Source: an uncultured Trueperaceae bacterium
Lineage (GTDB): Bacteria > Deinococcota > Deinococci > Deinococcales > Trueperaceae
DNA: 64,000 nucleotides
Direction: 5' to 3'
Assembly: GCA_963799485.1 (NCBI GenBank)
Contig: CAWCXJ010000007.1
Coordinates: forward strand, 320,001 to 384,000
Shown here piece by piece: positions 5,581-63,653 of the stretch (position 1 is its first letter; each line of letters starts with the position of its first letter). The notes under the pieces were generated by a model that saw nothing but the letters and a program-made list of their open reading frames with translations, searched no databases and was not told where the DNA came from. The position numbers and the translations under genes are program-made.

Positions 5581-7566
<1,986 letters not shown>

Positions 7567-7585
7567 GATTTTCTTTAGAACCGTA

Positions 7586-7619
7586 AAAGAGCGGAGTCGC
7601 CAGCTCCGCTCTTTATTTT
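7586..7619. terminator. Bidirectional terminator between gyrB and pullulanase
   Basis: AAAGAGCGGAG-loop-CTCCGCTCTTT. Confidence 0.8.
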
Positions 7620-7633
7620 GGCCGATAAGAACT

Positions 7634-10600
7634 TTACCGTCCCAGAAAAACCGCCGTCGTCCGTCCCGGTACAACGAAGGTTCCGTCCGTTCTAGCCCGT
7701 GAAAACTTGACGAGCGGGTCGCCCCCTTCCTGCTGCACCGGATGCAGCTTCATTCCACCTGCTAACTCTGGAATGTTTAGAGTCTGCACGTCGGGCGTAC
7801 CGTTGAAAACGACGGTGATGCTCGCTAACTTAGGCTCGAGGTCGTCGGCGTCCTCGAGCCTCATCACAATCACGCCGGGGATTTGTTCCGGGCCGGTGTT
7901 GTAAAAGCTCAGAGCGCTTTGCACGGCTTCGGCGGTTTGCAAGCGGAACAGGGGAGAGCTGTTACGAATTTGAAGCATCTCTTGAAGATGTTCAGCGTTT
8001 TGGCGAATGTCCGTTTCACTCGGTGCAGGGAGGGTTCCAAGCAAGCGGCTCATCAGGGGCCAGTTGTCGCCGTTTTCTCCCTCGAGTGGTAGCCCTAAAC
8101 CCCAGTTGTTCGCCTTGTACGAAAAGTCCAGCCGGTTAAACCAGTCGCCGGAGTTGTAAGAGTTGCGGTCGAGCGATTTTGAACGCAGCAGGTCGCTGCC
8201 CGCGTGAAAAAACGGGACGCCTTGGGACAGGGCGACCAGAGACAACCCCAGATTTTGCATCCGTACTCGTTCGCTTATCGGGGTCTCGAGCGGCGCTTTA
8301 AGCGCAACCGCGTCGAAAAGCGTTTCGTTGTCGTGCGCTGAGACGTAAACGATGTTCTCTTGCGGGTCTTGGGTGTAACCCGCCGGACTCTCGCCGTAAA
8401 GGATGTCGGCCCCGCGCACCGTTTCGCCGTCGGCGTTTTGAAAGGTGTAATCGGCAAGGTTGCCTGCTAGTCCGATACGAATCTGGTCGCTGGCGAGCAG
8501 GAGTCTGGCTTTTTGCTCTGCCGGTGTTCCCTGCGCCGAGTCGTTCGGGTCGGTAAAGAGTCCGGTGATAAAACCCTGTTCTTGGGGCCCGGAAAAAGGT
8601 GTGCCCCCCCGCGCGGCGTCGCGCAACCTATCGTTAAACGTACCGATACCGAGCCCCGCAACGTTTTGCTGCGTCGCGTTGACGCCCCGCGCATTTCCGG
8701 CGACCTCGCCGAAATCCCAACCTTCGCCGTAAAGGTAGATGCTGGAACCGTCCACGCCGTCTTTTTCAAGGGTGAGGCCGCTGAGCGCCTCTTTGACCGC
8801 CACCATATTCGAGACCATATGATGCCCCATCAAATCGAACCTGAAGCCGTCTATCTTATAAGCTTTGGCCCACGTAACGAGTGAGTCCACCATCAGCTTT
8901 TCCATCATGGCGTGTTCTGTAGCGGTGTTTTGGCAGCAGGTCGAGGTTTCGACTGCGCCGTCCGGATTCAGGCGATGATAGTAACCGGGGACGATGCGGT
9001 CTAAGACCGACAACTCGGCTTGTCCGCTCGAGCTCGTGTGGTTGTACACCACGTCCATCACCACCCGCAAGCCGGTTTCGTTCAGGCTTTGCACCATCTG
9101 GCGAAACTCCAGGGTGCGCGCCGCTCCCTCCGGATTTACGGCGTAAGAACCCTCTGGAACAGTGTAGTGCAGCGGGTCGTAACCCCAGTTAAAGGCGTCT
9201 TGGTCTTGCACGGCGGTGACGGCGGCTTGTTGTTCGGGGCTGGCCGGCGCGTAACGCGTCAGGTCGCCCGCAGGCGTCTCCCACGTGCTTTTATCTTCGT
9301 CGATAGTGGCGATGTCGAATACGGGCAAAAGGTGCAGGTGGGTCAACCCGGCGTCGGCTAGTGCGCGCAGGTGCGTCATACCGTCCGACTTCGGCACGCT
9401 GAACGCGCCGTAAGTGCCGCGCAAGGATGCTGGAACAGTTTCGTCGGTGGCGCTAAAATCGCGCACGTGCAACTCGTATACACTGATATCTTCGGGCGCT
9501 GCCAGGGGTGGTTTGTCCAGAGTATTCCAGCCTTCAGGTTGCAAGGCGGGGTCGTCTAGGTCGACGATTTGCGAACGGGTGCTGTTTGTCGATAACGCGT
9601 AGGCGTAGGGGTCGGTGACAAGGTTGGTTTCAAGCTGCTGCGTGGTGGGCGCGTAAACCGTGACTTCAAAAAGGTAGTACTTGCCGTTCCAGTCGGGGTC
9701 GCCGGTAATATTCCAGATGCCGGTGGTGTCGCTGCGGGTCAGCTCGAGTACTTTCCCCGCGTCACTTTCGGCGTCGGGAAAAAGGTGTAGCCGGACGTTT
9801 TGCGCGGTGGGTGCCCAAACGCGAACAGTCGGCGTGTCACCCTCCCAAACGACGCCTAGAGGTTCGTCATAAGCAGCTTCGGCGTAGAGGTCGTCCAAAA
9901 TGCCGGGAATCTGTACGCCGGTTGCGTCTAAAGGTCTGCCTATAGGAAAATCTCCGGACTCAGCGATGGCGAAGACCGCAAGCTGACCGCGCAAAGTCTC
10001 GGCGGGATTATCGTCGTTCAGACGGTAAGCAGAGTAATCCGCGAGATAGGGAAACTTAGCTCGCAGTTCGTCGCTAAGTCCTGCTTTGAGAAGCTCGAGT
10101 TCAACAAATTTTTGGATGCCGACCTCTGTTGGCTCAACACCGGTTTCAGTCAGCTCGAGCCCCCCGCTTGCCGCAGAGGTGAGCACAACGCGGGCATCTT
10201 CCGGCAATTCAGCGTCCCAAACGAGGGTTGTCCGGTCGAGCCAGTGGGCCCGCGCCATACTCAAGTCACCGGGTAGTCGGGCCTGGTTCGGGTCGGGCAA
10301 AGAAGTATAGACCATCTTGTCTCCTGAAACGACCCACGCTTCAAGGTCTTGGGTCAAGTCGAGTGTCATATCCGGCCCGGGGTCTTTTTCGTCGCCCTTA
10401 TGAATGATAAACCCGAGTTGCTCGGCGTCGTTTGTTAGACTCACGTCCCAGTAGACGCCGAAATCGTCCTCGCCGGTGGGCCTCAGCCCCGTCTCCCAAG
10501 TTACGCTTTCCGAAGTGTCTCCCCAAACATGCAGTGTCCAGCCGGAAAAATCTGTGTCAGGGCGGTTGTAGTGAACACGGGCTACGCCTTCAGAAACTGC

Positions 10601-54973: not shown

Positions 54974-56152
54974 CAAAATCAGGGGTGCCGGCAAGGGTCT
55001 GTGTCGCCTTCGGTACCCGCCCGGAAGCCACCAAGATGGCCCCGGTTGTGTATGCGCTGCGTGAACAAGCGGGGACTCGAGCCCCTCTTGCTCGTCACCG
55101 GACAGCACCGCGAACAGCTCCGCAGTGTGCTGGCTTTGTTCAAGCTCACCCCGGACTTCGACCTCGACGTGATGCAGGTTCAGCAGACGCTCCCTGAACT
55201 CCTGGCCCGCACCGTTCCCGCCGCCGCGAAAGCCCTTAAAACCCTGCGGGCAGATTACGTTCTGGTTCACGGCGACACCTTGTCAACTTTTGCCGTAGCG
55301 CTCGCGGCCTACTTTGAAGGCATTCCCGTCGCGCACGTCGAGGCGGGGTTGCGTTCACACAACCTCAGAGAACCGTTTCCCGAAGAGGCGAACCGCCGTT
55401 TGACGGATGTTTTGACCGACCTCGAGCTGCCGCCTACGCCGCTCGCCAAAGCCAATCTGCTCCGTGAAGGCAAACGTGAAGCAACGATGGTCGTAACCGG
55501 CAATACCGCCGTGGACGCCGTGCGGTTCGTGGCCCAGAACGCACACTGGGCCGAACTGCCACCTGGCCCGGTCATCACCCTCACGATGCACCGCCGCGAA
55601 AACCTGCCGGTGCTTCGCCCTCTCGCTGAACTGTTTGCACGGCTCGCCGCCGAGTTTTCTGCCTTTACCTTCGTCTATCCGGTTCACCTCAATCCGGCGG
55701 TGCGCGGAGCGGTGTGGGAACCGCTGGCAAATGTCCCCAACGTCATTTTGACCGACCCGCTGGGCTACCCCGAAATGGTCGCCCTGATGAAAGCCTCGGA
55801 ACTGATCGTCACCGATTCGGGCGGCTTACAAGAAGAAGGAACGGCGCTCGGGGTACCCGTTGTCGTTCTCAGAAACGTTACCGAACGGCCCGAAGGCGTC
55901 GCGTCGGGGTCGCTCAAGCTGGCGGGGAACACGCCCGAAAGCGTCGAGGCGAGCTTGCGCCCGCTGCTTAGTGACGGTGCAGCAAGGGCTGTCATGCGAA
56001 ACCGGCCCAACCCTTACGGCGACGGTCTCGCCGGTGTCCGGGTCGCACGGGCGGTGGCGTGGCGTTTAGGGCTGGCGGAGCGGCCTGCGGACTGGGCGGG
56101 TGGGCAACACGTGTTTGAGCGCGACGAGGAGCGCAATCAGGCACGCGGCTAG
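54970..56152 (+). pseudogene. wecB: UDP-GlcNAc 2-epimerase, split by a +1 frameshift near 55071-55074
   Basis: [12 protein letters not shown] lies in one frame; [20 protein letters not shown] and TDSGGLQEE lie in another. Confidence 0.85.
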
Positions 56153-56680
56153 GGTCGTTGCCGTAATCCGTTCCGGGGATGCGGACGAAGCCAGCGACAA
56201 GTAGATACCGACCGGGTAGACGAGCGCCGTTAAAAATGTCGCCAAGGTCACGCGGCGAAAAATCAGGATAAAGAGGAGCAGCGCCGCAAGTCCGTAAAGT
56301 CCGCCGAGCGGATAGACGGGCAGCGCCACGCCGAGCGTCGTCGCCAAACCTTTCCCGCCGCGAAACCCGACCCACACCGACCAGAGATGTCCGACAATCG
56401 CCCCGACCCCGGCAACGAGCGGCGTAACGAGTGGGTCGCCACCGAGTGCGCCGAGCCATAAACCGATAAAACTTGCCAGGGCACCTTTGCCCAAATCGAG
56501 GAGTAGGACGAGCGCCCCGAGCGCCCAGCCGAGATTGCGGGCGGTGTTCATCGCACCCATGCTGCTCGAGCCCACCTCGAAAATATCTCGGTGCTTGAGC
56601 CGCGCGACTAGCGCCGCACTCGGCAAACTGCCGACCAAATAGCCGGTCAGCACACTCAAACCTAAAAAAATCCAGCTCAT
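56066..56680 (-). CDS. plsY: Glycerol-3-phosphate acyltransferase
   Basis: YLVGSLP, GAMNTAR, DLGKG, GH...FRGGKGLAT. Confidence 0.92.
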
Positions 56681-56703
56681 ACGGTGCTATTCATAAAGCT
56701 TGT

Positions 56704-57447
56704 TTATACCGCAGCTTCCGGCGTTCTCGGCAAATAGAGCAAGCTCTGCACCTCACCGACGTGATAGCCCAGATACCGCGACAACAGCGCCCAGTGCGCG
56801 CGGCGCTCGCCGAAGGGCAAGGTAAGCGCCTCCGCAACCCCCAAGCGGTGCAGCGCCGCGAGTTCATCCCGGACGCTCGGCAACAGCCGAAACCCGCCCC
56901 CGCACGCCGCGCAGCTGAGGCCCCCGGCAGCAACGTCGAACGTTGTTGCGTCTCCCAAATCGCGCTCACCACAACGGGCGCAGCGCGTCAAGCTTGGTGT
57001 CAACCCGCCCTGCGCCAACAACCGCCAGCTCATGACCAGCGCGACGCGTTCGGGGTCGGGGTCTCTCGACACCCCGCGCAGCGCTCCGGTAAAGTAGCGG
57101 TAAAAGCTACCGTCGAGATGCACGTCTACCGCGAGTTTGTCGGTCAGCTCGGCGAGGACGTGGGCGTAAGGGTAAACAGCCGGGTCGCTCAGCCGGGGCA
57201 GCGCGCCGTTAAGTTGAACTTGTGTGATGAGCGCCAAATCGCTCTGGTCATTCGGACGGGTGTAGTGCTGCACGGTTACGTCGTGAAACAAGCTCAGCTT
57301 GCCCAGGTTGCCGCCGACGAGCTTGCCTTTACGGGCAACGGCGCGCCATTTGCTCTGTTCGCTCAGGAGCGTGACTACGATGTCCCCGCTCGGTAATTCG
57401 GAGCGGCGCAAGATGATCCCTTCTTGGACGGTGTAACGTTGTCCCAC
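56704..57447 (-). CDS. recO: DNA repair protein RecO
   Basis: OB-fold EGIILRR...AVARK and C4 Zn finger CARC...CAAC. Confidence 0.9.
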   Translation of the reverse strand: MGQRYTVQEGIILRRSELPSGDIVVTLLSEQSKWRAVARKGKLVGGNLGKLSLFHDVTVQHYTRPNDQSDLALITQVQLNGALPRLSDPAVYPYAHVLAELTDKLAVDVHLDGSFYRYFTGALRGVSRDPDPERVALVMSWRLLAQGGLTPSLTRCARCGERDLGDATTFDVAAGGLSCAACGGGFRLLPSVRDELAALHRLGVAEALTLPFGERRAHWALLSRYLGYHVGEVQSLLYLPRTPEAAV

Positions 57448-57858: not shown

Positions 57859-59850
57859 CTAGTTGAGCGTTTCACCGGTCCTGGGCGGCGCGCCGAGAAC
57901 CAAATGCTGTTTAAGGAGCAGCGCAAACTCGTCTTCAGGCATGGGTTTTGCGAAGAAAAACCCTTGCCCGACGTCGCAACCGAGGTTGCGGAGCAGTTCA
58001 AGCTGTTCAGCCGTCTCAATACCTTCGGCAACGAGTTCGACGCCCAGGTTTTGCGCCAGCTTGACGATCGCCTCGACGAGGGCAAGCGCGTAGTGCGGCG
58101 CGCGGCGCGGCGCGTTCAAGTCACGGACGAATGAACGGTCAATCTTGATAGTGTCGATTGGAAAGTCGCGCAGGTACGACAAGGACGAGTAACCGGTACC
58201 GAAGTCGTCTACCGCCACGGTGATGTTCGCGCGTTTGAGGCTTTGCAGGTTGCGCCGGACGATTTCAGGGTTACGGAGCATGGCGCTTTCGGTCAGCTCG
58301 AGTTCCAACATACCGGGCTCGAGGCGTGAACGCCGGAGCGCCTCCATCACCGAATCGCCGAAGCCGGGTTGGGCAAACTGCAGCGCCGAAACGTTGACGC
58401 TGACCCGAACCGACGAACCCGAAAGCTCCCAGGCGCGCGCCTGCCGGGTTGCCGTTTGCAACACCCAAGCGCCCAAAGCAACGATATGACCGCTTTGCTC
58501 GGCTAGGGGAATAAAGTCGGCGGGTGAAACGAGGCCGCGTTCGGGATGTTCCCAGCGTAGCAGCGCTTCGGCCTTGACGAGCCGATCTGTGCGGAGGTCG
58601 AAAAGCGGTTGGTAAAAAAGTTGCAATTCGCCCCTGGTGAGCGCTTGCCGCAGGTCACGTTCCAAAGCTTTATGCGCCTCGAGGGCGGCGTCGACGGTTT
58701 TGTGGTAGCGCTTGACGCCGTTTTTGCCGGCGTGTTTAACGTGATACATGGCGCTGTCGGCGTGCCGTAAAAGTTCGGCAGGGTCGTCGGTATCGTCGGG
58801 GTAAACGCTTACGCCGATACTCGCCCCAAGGTTAAACACCTGCGCGCCAAGAAAAAACGGCGTATCGAGGTTTCGTTTGATCTTTTCGGCAACTTTGACC
58901 GCTTCACTGCTCGTTTTGAGGCCACGCAGCAAAATAGCGAATTCGTCGCCGCTAATTCGCACCAAGAGGTCGGTCTGCCGGGTCGTGCGCCGTAAACGTT
59001 CGGCGATTTGCATAAGGAGGGTGTCGCCCGCCTCGTGTCCCACCGTGTCGTTGATGAGCTTAAAGCCGTCGATATCGATCAAAAGCAGGGCGAAAACCTC
59101 TTGCGTGGTCTCGGCGCTGCGCCGCAGGGTGTCCTCGAGCGTCAAGCGGTTCGGCAGGCCCGTTAAGAGGTCGGTATAGGCAAGCCGCTCCACCGTTTCG
59201 ACGTGGGTTTGCGAACGGACGAAACGGCCCATATAACGGCTGAAAAAGTAGCTCAGCGCGTAAAAGGTGAGGTTGGCTAAAAGCAGCTGGGCGAGTGCCT
59301 GAACCTCCCCGTAATTTTCGCCTGCCCACAGCTGGGACGCGCCGTAAACGACCCCGAGCGCGACCATCGCGGCAAAGCACGACGAGGCGACGCGCCGCCC
59401 GCCACAATGTCCGCCACAATGTCCGCCACAATGTCCGCCACAATTTCCGCCGCAATGTGGCAACAGCGCGGTCAACACGTAGAGCGCCGGAAGCCACACG
59501 AACGTTTCGCTGAGTTCCCGAAAAAAACTTGCACCGGGGGGCAAAAAGTAGAGGATATAGACGAGTTTACTCAGAAAAAAGAGCGCCGCCGCTGTTATCG
59601 TTCCTAAAAAGATGCGTTCAAAGGGGAGAACGCGGAAGTAGAGCAGCGCGCCGAAGAGCAGCAACACGCCCGCCAGCGCAGGGTACGCGGCGGTGTCGTA
59701 GGGGGTCGCTTGCGACCCTAGACGCTCGAGCGCCAGCCCGAGCAAAAGTGCCAATGCCGGAACAGGCAGCGCCACTAAAAAAGCACTCCGCCAGTTTTGC
59801 TGCGGCGTCCGGCCTAACGTGCCAAGCTTTTGAACGAGGCGTTCTAGCAT
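57859..59850 (-). CDS. Membrane-sensor diguanylate cyclase/phosphodiesterase (TM-GGDEF-EAL)
   Basis: About 6 TM helices, DLLTGLPNR, SGDEF, EAL, DDFGTGYSS, KID, EGIE; start 59850 or 59904. Confidence 0.93.
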   Translation of the reverse strand: MLERLVQKLGTLGRTPQQNWRSAFLVALPVPALALLLGLALERLGSQATPYDTAAYPALAGVLLLFGALLYFRVLPFERIFLGTITAAALFFLSKLVYILYFLPPGASFFRELSETFVWLPALYVLTALLPHCGGNCGGHCGGHCGGHCGGRRVASSCFAAMVALGVVYGASQLWAGENYGEVQALAQLLLANLTFYALSYFFSRYMGRFVRSQTHVETVERLAYTDLLTGLPNRLTLEDTLRRSAETTQEVFALLLIDIDGFKLINDTVGHEAGDTLLMQIAERLRRTTRQTDLLVRISGDEFAILLRGLKTSSEAVKVAEKIKRNLDTPFFLGAQVFNLGASIGVSVYPDDTDDPAELLRHADSAMYHVKHAGKNGVKRYHKTVDAALEAHKALERDLRQALTRGELQLFYQPLFDLRTDRLVKAEALLRWEHPERGLVSPADFIPLAEQSGHIVALGAWVLQTATRQARAWELSGSSVRVSVNVSALQFAQPGFGDSVMEALRRSRLEPGMLELELTESAMLRNPEIVRRNLQSLKRANITVAVDDFGTGYSSLSYLRDFPIDTIKIDRSFVRDLNAPRRAPHYALALVEAIVKLAQNLGVELVAEGIETAEQLELLRNLGCDVGQGFFFAKPMPEDEFALLLKQHLVLGAPPRTGETLN
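59399..59458. repeat. 12-bp tandem repeat x5 (CCGCCACAATGT) encoding (H/N)CGG
   Basis: Three exact units and two single-mismatch units. Confidence 0.95.
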
Positions 59851-60034
59851 CTGGAAAGGTGAGAAATTGGTCGGCGCGTAACCATAGGCATAATCAAGAT
59901 ACACACAAAACAGCAGTTTGGATTCGTGAAATTTAGCACTCTGCCGTCTGCGCCTGCGAATCCGGCTTCAGCGCTGAAATCCGGCGAACCTCGCCCCGCA
60001 CAAAAGCTGAACGGCAACGCGCCGACGTTATAGA

Positions 60035-60907
60035 ATGCCGAGTGTGACCCTGCCCCTTAGCACCGTCGCTGAACCCACTCGTCCGCCCGAACCCATAACC
60101 GAAGAAACGCTGCTGAGACGTATTTGCGTCTCGAAGCCTTATTACGCGCTGCTAGACCCGGCAAGCGCCGGTAACACCTTTTACGCCAGCGCCGTCGCCG
60201 ATTTGCCCTTGGGGGCCGAAGTCGGGCCGATGGGCAGCGCTGAAATCAGTCGCCACGCCGCAATTTCGGGTTTGTGCGCCGCAGCCCTCGCCCAAAAAGA
60301 CGACAAGCGGCGGTTTTATCTGGCGCAACGCGCTGAATACCGGGGCGTTGCGAACGCGGCACCTTACGGCGTACCTGTTACGTTCGCAGCGACGCTCAAG
60401 CGTCTGGATAAACGCGGGGCACGTTCGGAAATCATCGTCGAGGCGGCAGGAAAGCCGTTGGCAAAACTCGTCGTTGATTACACCATCTTGACCGAATACG
60501 CTTTCAGCAGACTTTTTCGGAGCCGTTATCGTCCGACCGAGCCGCAACCGGCGATGAATATCGACCTTCCTGGAAGCGTCTACAGTTCGGGTAAACGGTC
60601 GGTTTACGAGGTAGACGCGCTGCCTGAAACGGTTTGTGCGGGTCACTTTGCCGACCACCCGGCCCTTCCGGTTGCGCTGCTGATGGGTCAGCTCGGTACG
60701 GCGGCGTGGCGGCTGATGGACTCGGCGGGTTGGCGTGGTGTTCAGGCAAGTGTAAACGCGACCGACCTCTGCTGGGCGGACGAACGCGTCCGTTTCGAGG
60801 CCGAACGCGCAGCACTGCACCCCGATAAGCAGAGTACCTTCAAGTGTCGGGTCACCGCCGGAGACCGGCTCGTCTGCACCGCCGAGTTCAGGCTCGAGGC
60901 TCACTAG
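60035..60907 (+). CDS. Double hotdog-fold protein, AfsA/FabA-like
   Basis: AEISRH and GHFADHPALPVALL resemble hotdog active-site motifs; start may be GTG 60044. Confidence 0.55.
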   Translation: MPSVTLPLSTVAEPTRPPEPITEETLLRRICVSKPYYALLDPASAGNTFYASAVADLPLGAEVGPMGSAEISRHAAISGLCAAALAQKDDKRRFYLAQRAEYRGVANAAPYGVPVTFAATLKRLDKRGARSEIIVEAAGKPLAKLVVDYTILTEYAFSRLFRSRYRPTEPQPAMNIDLPGSVYSSGKRSVYEVDALPETVCAGHFADHPALPVALLMGQLGTAAWRLMDSAGWRGVQASVNATDLCWADERVRFEAERAALHPDKQSTFKCRVTAGDRLVCTAEFRLEAH

Positions 60908-61277
60908 CCAGACGAGTCCTACATCCAAACCACGCAGTGGTGTGTATACCCCCGATAGAGTTGCCCTTTTACGGTTCAGACGTCTCGGCGGCTCTAAGGC
61001 GCGCACCCATCCCCCCGGCGGGTGTGCGTTTTTTATGCCTTTCGCAAGAACAGCCGGTCGGTACGAAGTTCTGCAGCGCAACATCTTTTGTAATCGCTCC
61101 CGATTTCACTGACCGCTACGCACCTTTCAAGGTGACGCCGAGATCTCGCGCGACCAACCTACCGCAGAAACGGGACACACGTTCGCCTTTGGCGCGAGCG
61201 ACTTACACTGCACCGCCGACTTCCGGCACCAAGCCCCCAATCGGGGTTCAGACGGACTTTAGACGCTACACTTGGGT

Positions 61278-63653
61278 ATGCATGAGGGTTACTTTAGAGC
61301 ACCCGAACCGCAAGGTGCCGCCGCGTCCGGTCAGGTTATCTTGCGCGACGGCAGCACCGCGACGCTCAGGCCGGCTAGGGCGAGCGACCGAGCGCTGCTA
61401 GAAGCGTTTCTCGAGCGGATTGCACCCGAGTCGTATCAGCGCCGGTTTTTCGGTGAAACGCCCCCCAAAGTTGCCGCCGCGCGGATGCTGGCCCCCGAAC
61501 CTCCCGACACCAAGCTCGTGCTTTTTGTTCTGACCGGCGAGCCACACCAGCCCCGGCTTATCGCCACGGGTGAGTACGCCCGCGAAACGCCCGACTCGGA
61601 GCGCGCCGAGGTCGCTTTTTTGGTCGCCGACAGCGTTCACGGCAAGGGGTTGGGAACGCTTATTCTGGAGCGGCTGGCGCTCGTCGCGGCGCGGCACGGT
61701 ATAAGCCGGTTTACCGCCCTGACGATGGCGCGTAACCGGGCGATGCTCAGCATGTTTCAGAGCAGCGGCTTCCGGGTCAACCGGCGCTTGGAATACGGCG
61801 AGGTCGAACTCGACTTTTCGATCATGCCGAATGAGTCGAGCGTCGCGCGGATGGAGCTTCGTGAACGGGCGGCGACGGTCGCCTCGCTCTATCCTTTTTT
61901 CAGGCCGCGCCGCGTCGCCGTCTTCGGGCTTTCGACCTCGCCCAAAAGCGCGTCGCGGCGGGCGCTGGCCTACTTGCAAGCGGGTGGTTTTACGGGACAG
62001 GCGCACCTCATTAATCCCAATTTGAAGGGGGCCTATCCGTCGCTGGGGGCACTTCCGGACAAGGTCGAGCTGGCGCTGCTGGCCTTACCGCAAGACGCGG
62101 TACTAGCTGCTGTAGACGCGTGTGGGGCGGCGGGCGTCCGGGCGCTTATCGTCCTCAGCGCAGGCTTCGCCGAGTCGGGGACGGTCGGCGAGGCGCTCCA
62201 AAACGAGCTGGCGCGGCGGGTGCGCGGTTACGGGATGCGGCTCGTCGGCCCGAACAGTTTAGGTCTCTTGAACGCGGCCGAGGACGTAAGGCTTAACGCG
62301 AGTCTGGCTCCTGAATTGCCGCCACCCGGTAACGTCGCGGTGTCGTCGCAGTCGGGGGCCTTGGCGCTGGCGATACTCGAGCACGCGGGCGCAGCCGGGT
62401 TGGGCCTCAGAAGTGTCGTGTCGCTGGGCAATAAGGCGGACGTCTCGAGCAACGACCTCTTGCAGTACTGGGAGGACGACCCCGGTACGCATCTCATTGT
62501 CCTCTACCTGGCGTCGTTCGGGAACCCGCGCCGGTTCGCGCGGCTCGCACGGCGCGTCGGACGGCAAAAACCCATTCTGGTCGTCAAGGCCGGGGAGCCC
62601 GAGCTGACCGAAGCAGCCACCGACGCGCTCTTTCGGCAGACCGGCGTCATCCGCGCCGCGACTTTTGAAGAGCTGTTTGAAGTAGCGAACTTGCTCGCGC
62701 ACCAGCCCCTACCCAAAGGGCCACGTGTCGGCGTGTTGACCAATGCGAGCGGCCCGGCAGCGCTCGCAGAAGACGCCCTCGCCGCTCAGGGGCTCGAGCC
62801 CCGCCTTACCGACCTGAGCGCCTTTGCCGACGCCGAAGCGTACCGGGGAGCGCTACACACCGCTCTGGAGAACCCGGATTTGGACGCGCTGCTCGTCATC
62901 TTTTCACCCGTCGGTCTGAGCCGCGCCGACGAGGTGGGCGCGGTTATCGGTGAAGTGGTCTCTGCGGCGCGTTTACGCGGTCTGGTCAAACCGGTTTTAG
63001 GCTGTTTTACCGGCGCACACGCGCCCCTTTTCGCAGGCTCTGAAAGGCTGCCGAGCTACCGTTTTCCGGAGTCGGCGGCGCGTGCGCTCGCCCGCGCCTA
63101 CACCTACGCAACATGGCGCGACGAACCGCTCGGTCGGTTGCCGGTCTTTGAGGGCCTCGAGCCCCACCCTGCCCGCCAACTCTGCCGGGAGGTCGCCAGT
63201 GCAGGTGGCGGCGAGCTTTCCGAAACGCAGCGCGCCGAGGTTTTGCGGGCTTTCGGCGTCCCGTTTGAGCCGAATACCAAAGCGGGAACCGAGCTCAGCT
63301 TGCTGGTGCAACCTCACCCGCTCTTCGGCCCGGTGATGTCGCTTGGACTAGGTGGCCTTTACGGGGAGTTGGGCGACAAGACGTACCGGATTACGCCGCT
63401 GACCGGGCGCGACGCCGCTGAAATGGTGCGGAGTTTGCGAAGTTACCCGCTGCTTACGGGCTACCGGGGGCATCCGGCTGCGGACGTCTTAGCCCTCGAG
63501 ACACTCCTCTTACGGGTCTCGCGGCTCGTCGAGGAGGTGCCGGAACTCGGGACGTTAAACTTCAGTGTGCGGGTGCTCGCTCCCGGAGCGGGCGCTGTAG
63601 TCTCAGCGGCACGACTATCCGTTTTACCCACAGAAGAAGGTGAAGATGTCTGA
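61278..63653 (+). CDS. GNAT + CoA-binding/acyl-CoA synthetase fusion (Pat-type protein acetyltransferase)
   Basis: AEVAFLV...HGKGLG GNAT motif, then GPNSLG, SQSGAL, GNKADV, TNASG and a short ATP-grasp-like tail. Confidence 0.9.
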   Translation: MHEGYFRAPEPQGAAASGQVILRDGSTATLRPARASDRALLEAFLERIAPESYQRRFFGETPPKVAAARMLAPEPPDTKLVLFVLTGEPHQPRLIATGEYARETPDSERAEVAFLVADSVHGKGLGTLILERLALVAARHGISRFTALTMARNRAMLSMFQSSGFRVNRRLEYGEVELDFSIMPNESSVARMELRERAATVASLYPFFRPRRVAVFGLSTSPKSASRRALAYLQAGGFTGQAHLINPNLKGAYPSLGALPDKVELALLALPQDAVLAAVDACGAAGVRALIVLSAGFAESGTVGEALQNELARRVRGYGMRLVGPNSLGLLNAAEDVRLNASLAPELPPPGNVAVSSQSGALALAILEHAGAAGLGLRSVVSLGNKADVSSNDLLQYWEDDPGTHLIVLYLASFGNPRRFARLARRVGRQKPILVVKAGEPELTEAATDALFRQTGVIRAATFEELFEVANLLAHQPLPKGPRVGVLTNASGPAALAEDALAAQGLEPRLTDLSAFADAEAYRGALHTALENPDLDALLVIFSPVGLSRADEVGAVIGEVVSAARLRGLVKPVLGCFTGAHAPLFAGSERLPSYRFPESAARALARAYTYATWRDEPLGRLPVFEGLEPHPARQLCREVASAGGGELSETQRAEVLRAFGVPFEPNTKAGTELSLLVQPHPLFGPVMSLGLGGLYGELGDKTYRITPLTGRDAAEMVRSLRSYPLLTGYRGHPAADVLALETLLLRVSRLVEEVPELGTLNFSVRVLAPGAGAVVSAARLSVLPTEEGEDV

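Follow-up and report, generated by a model that had tools for sequence, protein, structure and literature searches.

RpfF and RpfR of Burkholderia form a pair in which the synthase of a fatty-acid signal, the Burkholderia diffusible signal factor (BDSF), is matched by a receptor of PAS-GGDEF-EAL architecture; the partner of AfsA-type enzymes is a receptor of the TetR family; and CqsA of the CqsA/CqsS system is a pyridoxal phosphate enzyme and not a hotdog protein. In a 64,000-nt stretch of DNA from an uncultured Trueperaceae bacterium (contig CAWCXJ010000007.1, positions 320,001 to 384,000; the whole stretch that was analyzed is called the window below) we investigated two neighboring genes, one for a membrane protein with a GGDEF and an EAL domain (the sensor gene) and one for a 290-aa protein of predicted hotdog fold (the hotdog gene, its product being HD290). 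Within the phylum Deinococcota the two genes form a self-contained module, and it is very probable that they are functionally coupled in some form. As to the mechanism, we tentatively favor, at somewhat short of an even chance, a reading in which an off-loading hotdog enzyme would make or remove a lipid-like ligand, the six-transmembrane (6-TM) domain of the membrane protein would sense it, and the turnover of cyclic di-GMP (c-di-GMP) would be set in this way.

Compared with RpfF/RpfR, the locus is alike in that an enzyme of acyl carrier protein (ACP)-bound acyl chains (a putative one in the window) is encoded beside a GGDEF-EAL protein, and in a proposed logic that leads from a lipid signal to c-di-GMP turnover. 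However, RpfF has the crotonase fold, whereas the window enzyme has the hotdog fold; RpfR is cytoplasmic and senses through its PAS domain, whereas the window sensor has a six-helix membrane module and no PAS domain. We know of no sequence relationship between RpfF/RpfR and the window pair. A diffusible signal factor system of the RpfF/RpfR type was therefore rejected, the enzyme being a hotdog and not a crotonase and the receptor a 6-TM module without PAS. The pair may be described as a signal-enzyme and a sensor built from two unnamed modules, from which RpfF/RpfR, AfsA/ArpA and CqsA/CqsS differ in enzyme fold, in receptor type or in both. In the literature on AfsA, hotdog proteins and GGDEF, on c-di-GMP in Deinococcus and on chain release by double hotdogs in polyketide synthases (PKSs), no description of the family or of the pairing was found.

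Linkage of homologues to a sensor gene had been chosen beforehand as the test on which the proposed pairing should stand or fall, and it was found almost without exception in Deinococcota with the hotdog gene. In a census of 364 Deinococcota genomes, which are related so that the counts are not independent events, the hotdog gene is present in 73 and the TM module in 181; in 59 of the 73 hotdog-bearing genomes both genes lie within ~3 kb of each other on a single contig (the two census tables were matched row by row by eye, and the unpublished genome G325, which is included in both tallies, was left aside in the pairing), and in eight more of the 73 the contig breaks off beside the hotdog gene, on the side that should bear the partner. 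Among the species-representative loci a homologue of the TM-GGDEF-EAL protein adjoins the hotdog gene in 23 out of 28, in one case (L023) without the TM part; the remaining five comprise three loci cut at contig ends, one from a Polyangiaceae metagenome-assembled genome (MAG) and one from a Saprospiraceae MAG. The orientation of the two genes depends on the lineage, with 2 divergent, 14 co-directional and 7 convergent arrangements in the 23 loci: Truepera (2 loci and the window) has the genes divergent, Deinococcus and its allies have them co-directional, the sensor gene lying upstream, and other Trueperaceae (7 loci) have them convergent, at times with overlapping stops. Clustering the flanking open reading frames (ORFs) of 22 loci and the window revealed no other gene in more than three loci, if one disregards a shadow ORF antisense to the hotdog gene. 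Plasmid as well as chromosomal copies of the pair occur, and in G106 and G126 the pair is duplicated as a unit.

The dependence of the two genes on each other is one-sided: the hotdog gene is almost never found without the sensor gene, and the sensor gene is often found alone. Whole genera have the sensor and no hotdog gene; of the 10 genomes of genus g28, for instance, 9 contain the TM module and none the hotdog gene. Solo second copies of the sensor are present in G005, G102, G069, G018 and the window's own genome. This asymmetry is the pattern of synthases and solo receptors. A search of the solo sensor loci for an enzyme that might stand in for the synthase turned up only rhomboid and subtilase genes, or genes for GAF-GGDEF and GntR proteins, as neighbors. 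The second copy in the window's own genome (G000:C5:62194-64222, i.e. L064 5194-7222) is split into a 388-aa ORF with the TM module and a partial GGDEF domain and a 297-aa EAL ORF; this copy has probably suffered a frameshift, and its surroundings contain no hotdog gene. The gene plsY (acyl-phosphate:glycerol-3-phosphate acyltransferase) lies ~1-2 kb from the sensor gene both in the window (56066-57447) and in four sensor-only Trueperaceae loci (L055-L058), in arrangements that differ between these lineages.

HD290 itself matches no Pfam family at E<=0.1 and no NCBIfam model. The three motifs read from its sequence in the preliminary description are all present (AEISRH, residues 69-74; YAFSRLF, 155-161; GHFADHPALP, 203-212). 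We found 126 homologues at E<=1e-3 in a database clustered at 90% and 428 representatives in a 50% library; wherever a source name of the 126 gives an organism, this is Deinococcus or Truepera, and the functions given in the source names vary ('A-factor biosynthesis hotdog', 'DH domain', 'thioesterase', 'PaaI-like'). The AlphaFold model, built from 41 sequences, has a predicted local distance difference test score (pLDDT) of 94 and consists of two hotdog halves, and Foldseek together with VIA-align placed it among double hotdogs. The best overall structural matches are the double-hotdog thioesterases ACOT7, TesB and FatA/FatB (Z 15.4-19.3, 203-214 residues aligned), with ACOT7 at Z 19.3 (root mean square deviation 2.6, 211 aligned), TesB at Z 18.8 and the acyl-ACP thioesterases at Z 15.4-16.7, while PKS dehydratase and product-template domains reach Z 12-16; the likeness to the thioesterases is one of fold, sequence identity being 7-13% and the motif of the window family being dehydratase-like. 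Thus HD290 is confidently predicted to be a double hotdog, and the fold that had been assigned by eye is borne out by the model.

In the alignment of 41 hotdog-family sequences 35 columns are invariant, among them R73 and H74 in the N-terminal half and C201, G203, H204, F205, P209 and P212 in the C-terminal half; E70, which stands at the start of helix 68-86 in the model and is conserved in the alignments, is at least 90% conserved in the same set, and E70, R73 and H74 are each at least 90% conserved in 42 remote members. The signature kept at 90% or more in both Deinococcota and these remote members reads PPY(F/Y), E70-x-x-R73-H74, YYLA and C201-x-G-H204-F-x3-P-x2-P. By analogy with the His/Glu' dyad of FabZ, we infer one composite pseudo-dimeric active site, in which His204 with Cys201 from the C-terminal half would meet Glu70, Arg73 and His74 from the N-terminal half. 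A weak match to the thioesterase FlK is found in 16 of the 41 members, in the N-terminal half (best E 8.8e-5).

The kinship of the C-terminal half is best seen with the profile of the remote members (A3), which hits FabZ structure sequences with 39.5 bits (E 4e-9) and places GHFxxxPxxP on the catalytic-His motif; with profile A1 the same comparison gives E 0.03. On these alignments the C-terminal half resembles FabZ, and we consider the family an unnamed, FabZ-related one. In the model a Glu also begins the partner half's central helix, as it does in the His/Glu' dyad of FabZ. In contrast to FabZ, the window protein has two fused halves with one complete site and residues of its own (Cys201, Arg73, His74), and the family is sporadic and linked to a signalling gene instead of fab genes. 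PF07977 (FabA) does not appear in the list of 14 families that the 41 members gave at E<=1. Weak leads from a language-model atlas put the nearest named clusters at 0.91 (ApeI/FabA-like), 0.87-0.88 (AfsA) and 0.87 (AvrD).

The preliminary description had likened the protein to the AfsA/ScbA butyrolactone synthases, and membership in that family is not supported. HD290 shares with AfsA, ScbA, MmfL and the PBS domain of the gladiostatin PKS the double-hotdog size and fold and an E-x-x-R on the central helix, and a distant kinship with FabA/FabZ, which the window family likewise has, is described for AfsA-type proteins in the accessible portions of two reports (PMC13454427, PMC8209734). However, AfsA matches PF03756 and carries DHxPG, and the window family does neither, its His motif being of the FabZ type. 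PF03756 was matched by 0 of 41 family members at E<=1, and a six-frame whole-genome search at E<=10 yielded three matches below threshold (the cut-off of the Pfam AfsA model is 24 bits), none of them at the hotdog gene. That the model recognizes true members was controlled on 251 sampled Myxococcota genomes, 5 of which contain genuine domains with 98-107 bits; these domains never lie at the loci of the hotdog family (G807 carries both, in different places), and hidden Markov models of the hotdog family score at most 3.6 bits on the genuine PF03756 ORFs. Profile-profile comparison by hhalign with A7, a set of 22 PF03756-positive single-domain proteins from Myxococcota genomes that holds no actinobacterial AfsA/ScbA, gave a probability of 3.2% for A3 (E 0.014, 108 columns, sensible register) and 0.8% for A1. 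The A3-A7 alignment puts the N-half E-x-x-R-H on the E-A-x-R-Q of AfsA, and this motif alone aligns, not significantly. Of the AfsA repeat motif HPxDHVPG...EAxRQ, which was taken from the alignments A5 and A7 of PF03756-positive proteins, the N-terminal half has E70-I-S-R73-H74 and no DHxPG, and the C-terminal half has GHFADHPALP in FabZ register and G-Q where E..RQ would fall. The missing AfsA entry in the fold-search lists is uninformative, since no structure of any ScbA homologue is said to exist in the part of PMC13454427 at hand. Taken together, membership in AfsA/PF03756 is not supported as judged by sequence comparison (no PF03756 match, hhalign at most 3.2%, a His motif in FabZ register, no DHxPG), and HD290 is not a recognizable AfsA butyrolactone synthase.

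Outside Deinococcota the hotdog family is rare: samples of 251 genomes each from Bacteroidota and Myxococcota contained it in 1 and 4 genomes, respectively. It forms the last domain of a PKS, straight after the ACP (KS-AT-DH-ER-KR-ACP-X), in P0229 and P0253 and likewise in three of the five matches from Myxococcota. As these PKSs already own a dehydratase (DH), a domain behind the final ACP would most simply serve off-loading or terminal tailoring. Off-loading of a chain by a hotdog domain has a precedent in gladiostatin, where, according to the available text of PMC7756379, a pfam03756 hotdog domain (the PBS domain) in the same position, at the PKS's C-terminus after the ACP, frees the chain by condensation with dihydroxyacetone phosphate (DHAP). 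One of the hotdog-terminated PKSs is a myxobacterial one in L039 (G807:C84, 385-18364); its flanking genes encode a methyltransferase, a dCache-adenylate/guanylate cyclase and two histidine kinases, which again places the family beside sensors of the nucleotide-second-messenger type. A stand-alone member occurs in L040 (G365:C91, 6595-12978) within an operon of the mevalonate pathway that also encodes HMG-CoA reductase, diphosphomevalonate decarboxylase, a GHMP kinase and a polyprenyl synthetase, a context which hints that some family members act on coenzyme A (CoA) thioesters. Efflux genes lie beside two of the members outside Deinococcota: RND/MFP/OMP in L038, and MacB/FtsX with HlyD in L026.

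The partner protein matches its earlier portrayal as a membrane protein of about six TM helices with SGDEF and an intact EAL domain. SGDEF and EALLR are present, with an RxxD (RQTD) five residues ahead of SGDEF. Among 21 orthologues G-D-E-F is invariant, the residue before it being S or G, and S/G-GDEF, RxxD, EALxR, DDFGTG, K and EGxE are invariant or nearly so; the EAL invariants comprise E-L-R of EALxR, N485, E517, D547-D548, K568, E608 and Q628-G629 (numbering of the 662-aa protein). Both domains are thus apparently active, as far as sequence can tell. Residues 1-235, on the other hand, match no Pfam or NCBIfam family. The AlphaFold model of residues 36-238 consists of six long helices (pLDDT 88); the conserved motifs of the module are WRR, Q..FD..YP, FFLxKL, TE(S/T)FFWxP and LANLT, with conserved polar residues inside helices: the D of Q..FD..YP, the K of FFLxKL, the E of TE(S/T)FFWxP and the N of LANLT. 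In structural comparison the module matches most coherently the six-helix anchors of four nucleotide cyclases: AC9, an adenylyl cyclase (Z 12.4, 169 aligned), ImcA, a diguanylate cyclase (Z 11.1, 174 aligned), AC5 (Z 9.9) and Rv1625c (Z 8.7). CqsS of CqsA/CqsS, Rv1625c, the mammalian adenylyl cyclases and ImcA share with the window sensor a six-helix membrane module directly before a nucleotide-cyclase-type domain; the window module differs from these 6-TM anchors in that it has no sequence match, Z values below the convincing range and a GGDEF-EAL output. Six-helix cyclase anchors are reported as lipid receptors in the accessible parts of PMC11606603 and PMC12505454, and the excerpted text of PMC4821796 describes the Rv1625c anchor as functionally replaceable by the 6-TM quorum-sensing receptor CqsS. 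In the language-model atlas the nearest cluster is MASE4 (0.83, a weak lead only). A region-restricted protein search with the TM module gave 22 close relatives and is uninformative on its occurrence outside Deinococcota.

In the window the loop that joins helices 4 and 5 of the sensor module contains a Cys/His/Gly-rich insertion, CGGNCGGHCGGHCGGHCGG (low pLDDT, model residues 119-128), which is unique to this genome and absent from all 20 aligned orthologues. By topology this loop should be cytoplasmic, and CGGNCGGHCGGHCGGHCGG may either stem from a recent expansion by slippage or serve as a loop that binds metal. The coordinates of all features are given in the following table.

Features of the gene pair in the window (positions of the 64,000-nt stretch)
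Feature	Position	Strand	Basis and remarks
Membrane GGDEF-EAL protein gene	57859..59904	-	ORF, 681 aa as called; probably 662 aa from ATG 59847
EAL domain, residues 416-654	57943..58659	-	Pfam E 2e-75; catalytic motifs intact
GGDEF domain, residues 242-395	58720..59181	-	Pfam E 9e-45; SGDEF and RxxD I-site
Six-helix TM module, residues 36-238	59191..59799	-	Alignment A2 and model
Tandem repeat, 12-nt x 5	59399..59458	-	Tandem Repeats Finder; encodes the CGGNCGGHCGGHCGGHCGG insertion
Conserved DNA block, ~60 nt	59876..59935	.	Alignment with two other Truepera genomes (L001, L002)
Divergent intergenic region	59905..60034	.	Between called starts
Hotdog protein gene ('HD290')	60035..60907	+	ORF, 290 aa; start may be GTG 60044, not ATG 60035
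N-terminal hotdog half, ~residues 23-160	60101..60514	+	Secondary structure of the model; central helix 68-86 carries E70-x-x-R73-H74
C-terminal hotdog half, ~residues 180-290	60572..60904	+	C201-A-G-H204-F-x3-P209-x2-P212, in FabZ register

The window has a G+C content of ~60%, and its nearest relatives are MAGs labelled Truepera sp., whose hotdog proteins are 75-76% identical. The two genes had been described as standing head to head less than 200 bp apart, and this distance is confirmed with either set of starts: they are divergent, with a gap of 130 bp between the called starts, and comparison with L001/L002 and P0004/P0007 suggests true starts at ATG 59847 for the sensor gene and GTG 60044 for the hotdog gene, which would widen the gap to 196 bp. 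The former start is indicated by L001, where the upstream extension is interrupted by a stop and the protein begins with the equivalent Met, and the latter by homologues that begin with MTLPL, matching the GTG. The sequence TATAGAAT at 60029-60036, seven bases ahead of GTG 60044, may be the -10 box of a leaderless transcript of the hotdog gene that would start nine bases downstream of the called ATG; a scan of the intergenic region for consensus sigma-70 sites found no promoter. The block at 59876-59935 lies upstream of the probable ATG of the sensor gene and is conserved as DNA and not as a reading frame (there is a stop in L001), so that it may represent a promoter, an operator or a 5' leader element; an Rfam search with the conserved block and the intergenic region gave no match at E<=1. 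Downstream of the hotdog gene (61272-63653, + strand) the window encodes a 793-aa GNAT acetyltransferase fused to NDP-forming acyl-CoA synthetase-like domains (CoA_binding, Succ_CoA_lig, ATP-grasp), which resembles protein acetyltransferases of the Pat type and stands beside the pair elsewhere only in L001.

According to the mechanism that we favor, the cytoplasmic hotdog enzyme would take an acyl chain off ACP or CoA, be it by hydrolysis, by dehydration and hydrolysis or by transfer to an acceptor; off-loading of an acyl thioester is suggested by the relatives in highly reducing PKSs, where the domain comes last and directly follows the ACP. A lipid-like product (or substrate) would then partition into the membrane and be sensed there by the six-helix domain of the neighboring protein, and the ligand would shift the balance between making (GGDEF) and breaking (EAL) of c-di-GMP. 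Linkage in the genomes, the fold, residue conservation, a FabZ-type motif, relatives at the end of PKSs and intact catalytic motifs of the partner are what is shown; what the substrate is, how it is off-loaded, that the TM domain senses the ligand and in which direction c-di-GMP would shift are points that we infer. A more far-reaching version, which we consider unlikely, is an autoinducer-type system of Deinococcota with a hotdog synthase that is neither AfsA nor crotonase and a new six-helix receptor, leading to a change in c-di-GMP. Here an acyl chain from fatty-acid synthase would become a lipophilic signal that is read inside the membrane, and the sensor-only genomes would be eavesdroppers.

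Several observations weigh against these proposals. The thioesterase-like fold, the dehydratase-like motif and the off-loading position in PKSs do not pin down one chemistry, none of the hotdog family's members has a known product, substrate or activity, and the adjacency of the genes shows functional coupling and not its kind. Nothing shows export or action from cell to cell in Deinococcota, and no transporter or exporter belongs to the cassette in the 22 loci and the window. The Z values of the TM module (12.4 and 11.1) stay under ~13, the level where helical bundles become convincing. In G006 both genes are present, but 178 kb apart on a contig of 234,777 bp, and in G291 (the L023 locus, 6900-8537) the adjacent GGDEF-EAL gene lacks the TM part. 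A high-scoring 250-aa ORF of the TM module is found in the latter genome ~510 kb from the Trueperaceae pair (G291:C1:3807060-3807593), and G291 looks like a rearrangement that parted sensor from output. Divergent paralogues or fragments of the hotdog gene occur without a sensor in G048, G071, G029 and G040 (in G048 as a second copy, in the other three as the only form), and two of the three inspected paralogues (G048, G071, G029) lie near a gene of the zinc-dehydrogenase type, one of the two also near an acyl-CoA dehydrogenase gene.

Alternatively, the hotdog protein could be a regulatory subunit on the cytoplasmic face of the GGDEF-EAL protein that reports the acyl-ACP/acyl-CoA pool, with or without turnover, which would make the pair a sensor of lipid metabolism instead of a synthase with its receptor. 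The tight linkage irrespective of orientation and the lack of a third gene would suit a physical pair, as would the dependence of the hotdog gene on the sensor gene and not vice versa, and there are precedents: in the available text of PMC5479800 c-di-GMP in Shewanella changes through the thioesterase activity of YbgC, a hotdog protein, and the title of PMC13729885 has the synthase CqsA inhibit its receptor CqsS. However, H204, E70 and C201 are equally conserved in Deinococcota and in the PKS-fused relatives, which argues for real chemistry; we regard a regulatory subunit as somewhat unlikely. Lower still, and to our judgment distinctly unlikely, we place a role in membrane-lipid homeostasis, with the 6-TM protein sensing a property of the membrane and the hotdog protein acting as a FabZ/FabA-like lipid enzyme that is co-regulated or downstream and whose product is not the ligand. 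It would agree with the FabZ-type motif, with the dehydrogenase genes near the paralogues just mentioned and with plsY close to the sensor gene in the window and four solo loci, but a housekeeping enzyme is not expected in only 73 of 364 genomes and almost only beside one sensor, the PKS-terminal relatives point to off-loading and not to chain modification, and the arrangement of plsY varies by lineage.

A true AfsA-type enzyme that has diverged very far, and that would join a beta-ketoacyl thioester with DHAP into a butenolide or butyrolactone signal, has in its favor the AfsA-sized double hotdog, the N-half E-x-x-R-H that falls on AfsA's E-A-x-R-Q over the 108 columns of the hhalign comparison, the AfsA-like domain of gladiostatin at the same PKS-terminal position (PMC7756379, as far as its text was available) and fold searches that could not find an AfsA, no structure being reported in the accessible part of PMC13454427. 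This idea is nonetheless improbable, given that PF03756 fails on all members and that none of its three sub-threshold genome matches falls on the hotdog gene, that the same model succeeds on true domains in Myxococcota away from the family loci, that the family profiles and hhalign give the low scores reported above, that DHxPG is absent and the His motif stands in FabZ register, and that the partner gene encodes a c-di-GMP enzyme and not a TetR repressor of the ArpA/ScbR type. Finally, the adjacency could be inherited synteny with no functional link at all, an explanation that draws on the relatedness of the genomes and the resulting dependence of the counts; since the pair occurs in three orientations with wholly variable flanks, on plasmids as well as chromosomes and duplicated as a unit, synteny alone is hardly credible.

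To our knowledge, little has been described of how the Deinococcus-Truepera lineage, resistant to radiation and desiccation, controls c-di-GMP. The module offers a compact case, two proteins without extra genes, of a lipid-derived molecule that would be read by a six-helix anchor, and the same question of reading by the anchor is open for the membrane anchors of adenylyl cyclases. It also defines a hotdog family for which there is no Pfam or NCBIfam model, with a Cys-x-Gly-His / Glu-x-x-Arg-His site and a terminal position in highly reducing PKSs, and the chemistry of this family may be a new way to release polyketide or fatty-acyl chains. If the autoinducer version were true, it would be the first chemical communication system described for Deinococcota and would give a function to the unnamed off-loading domain that ends myxobacterial PKSs.

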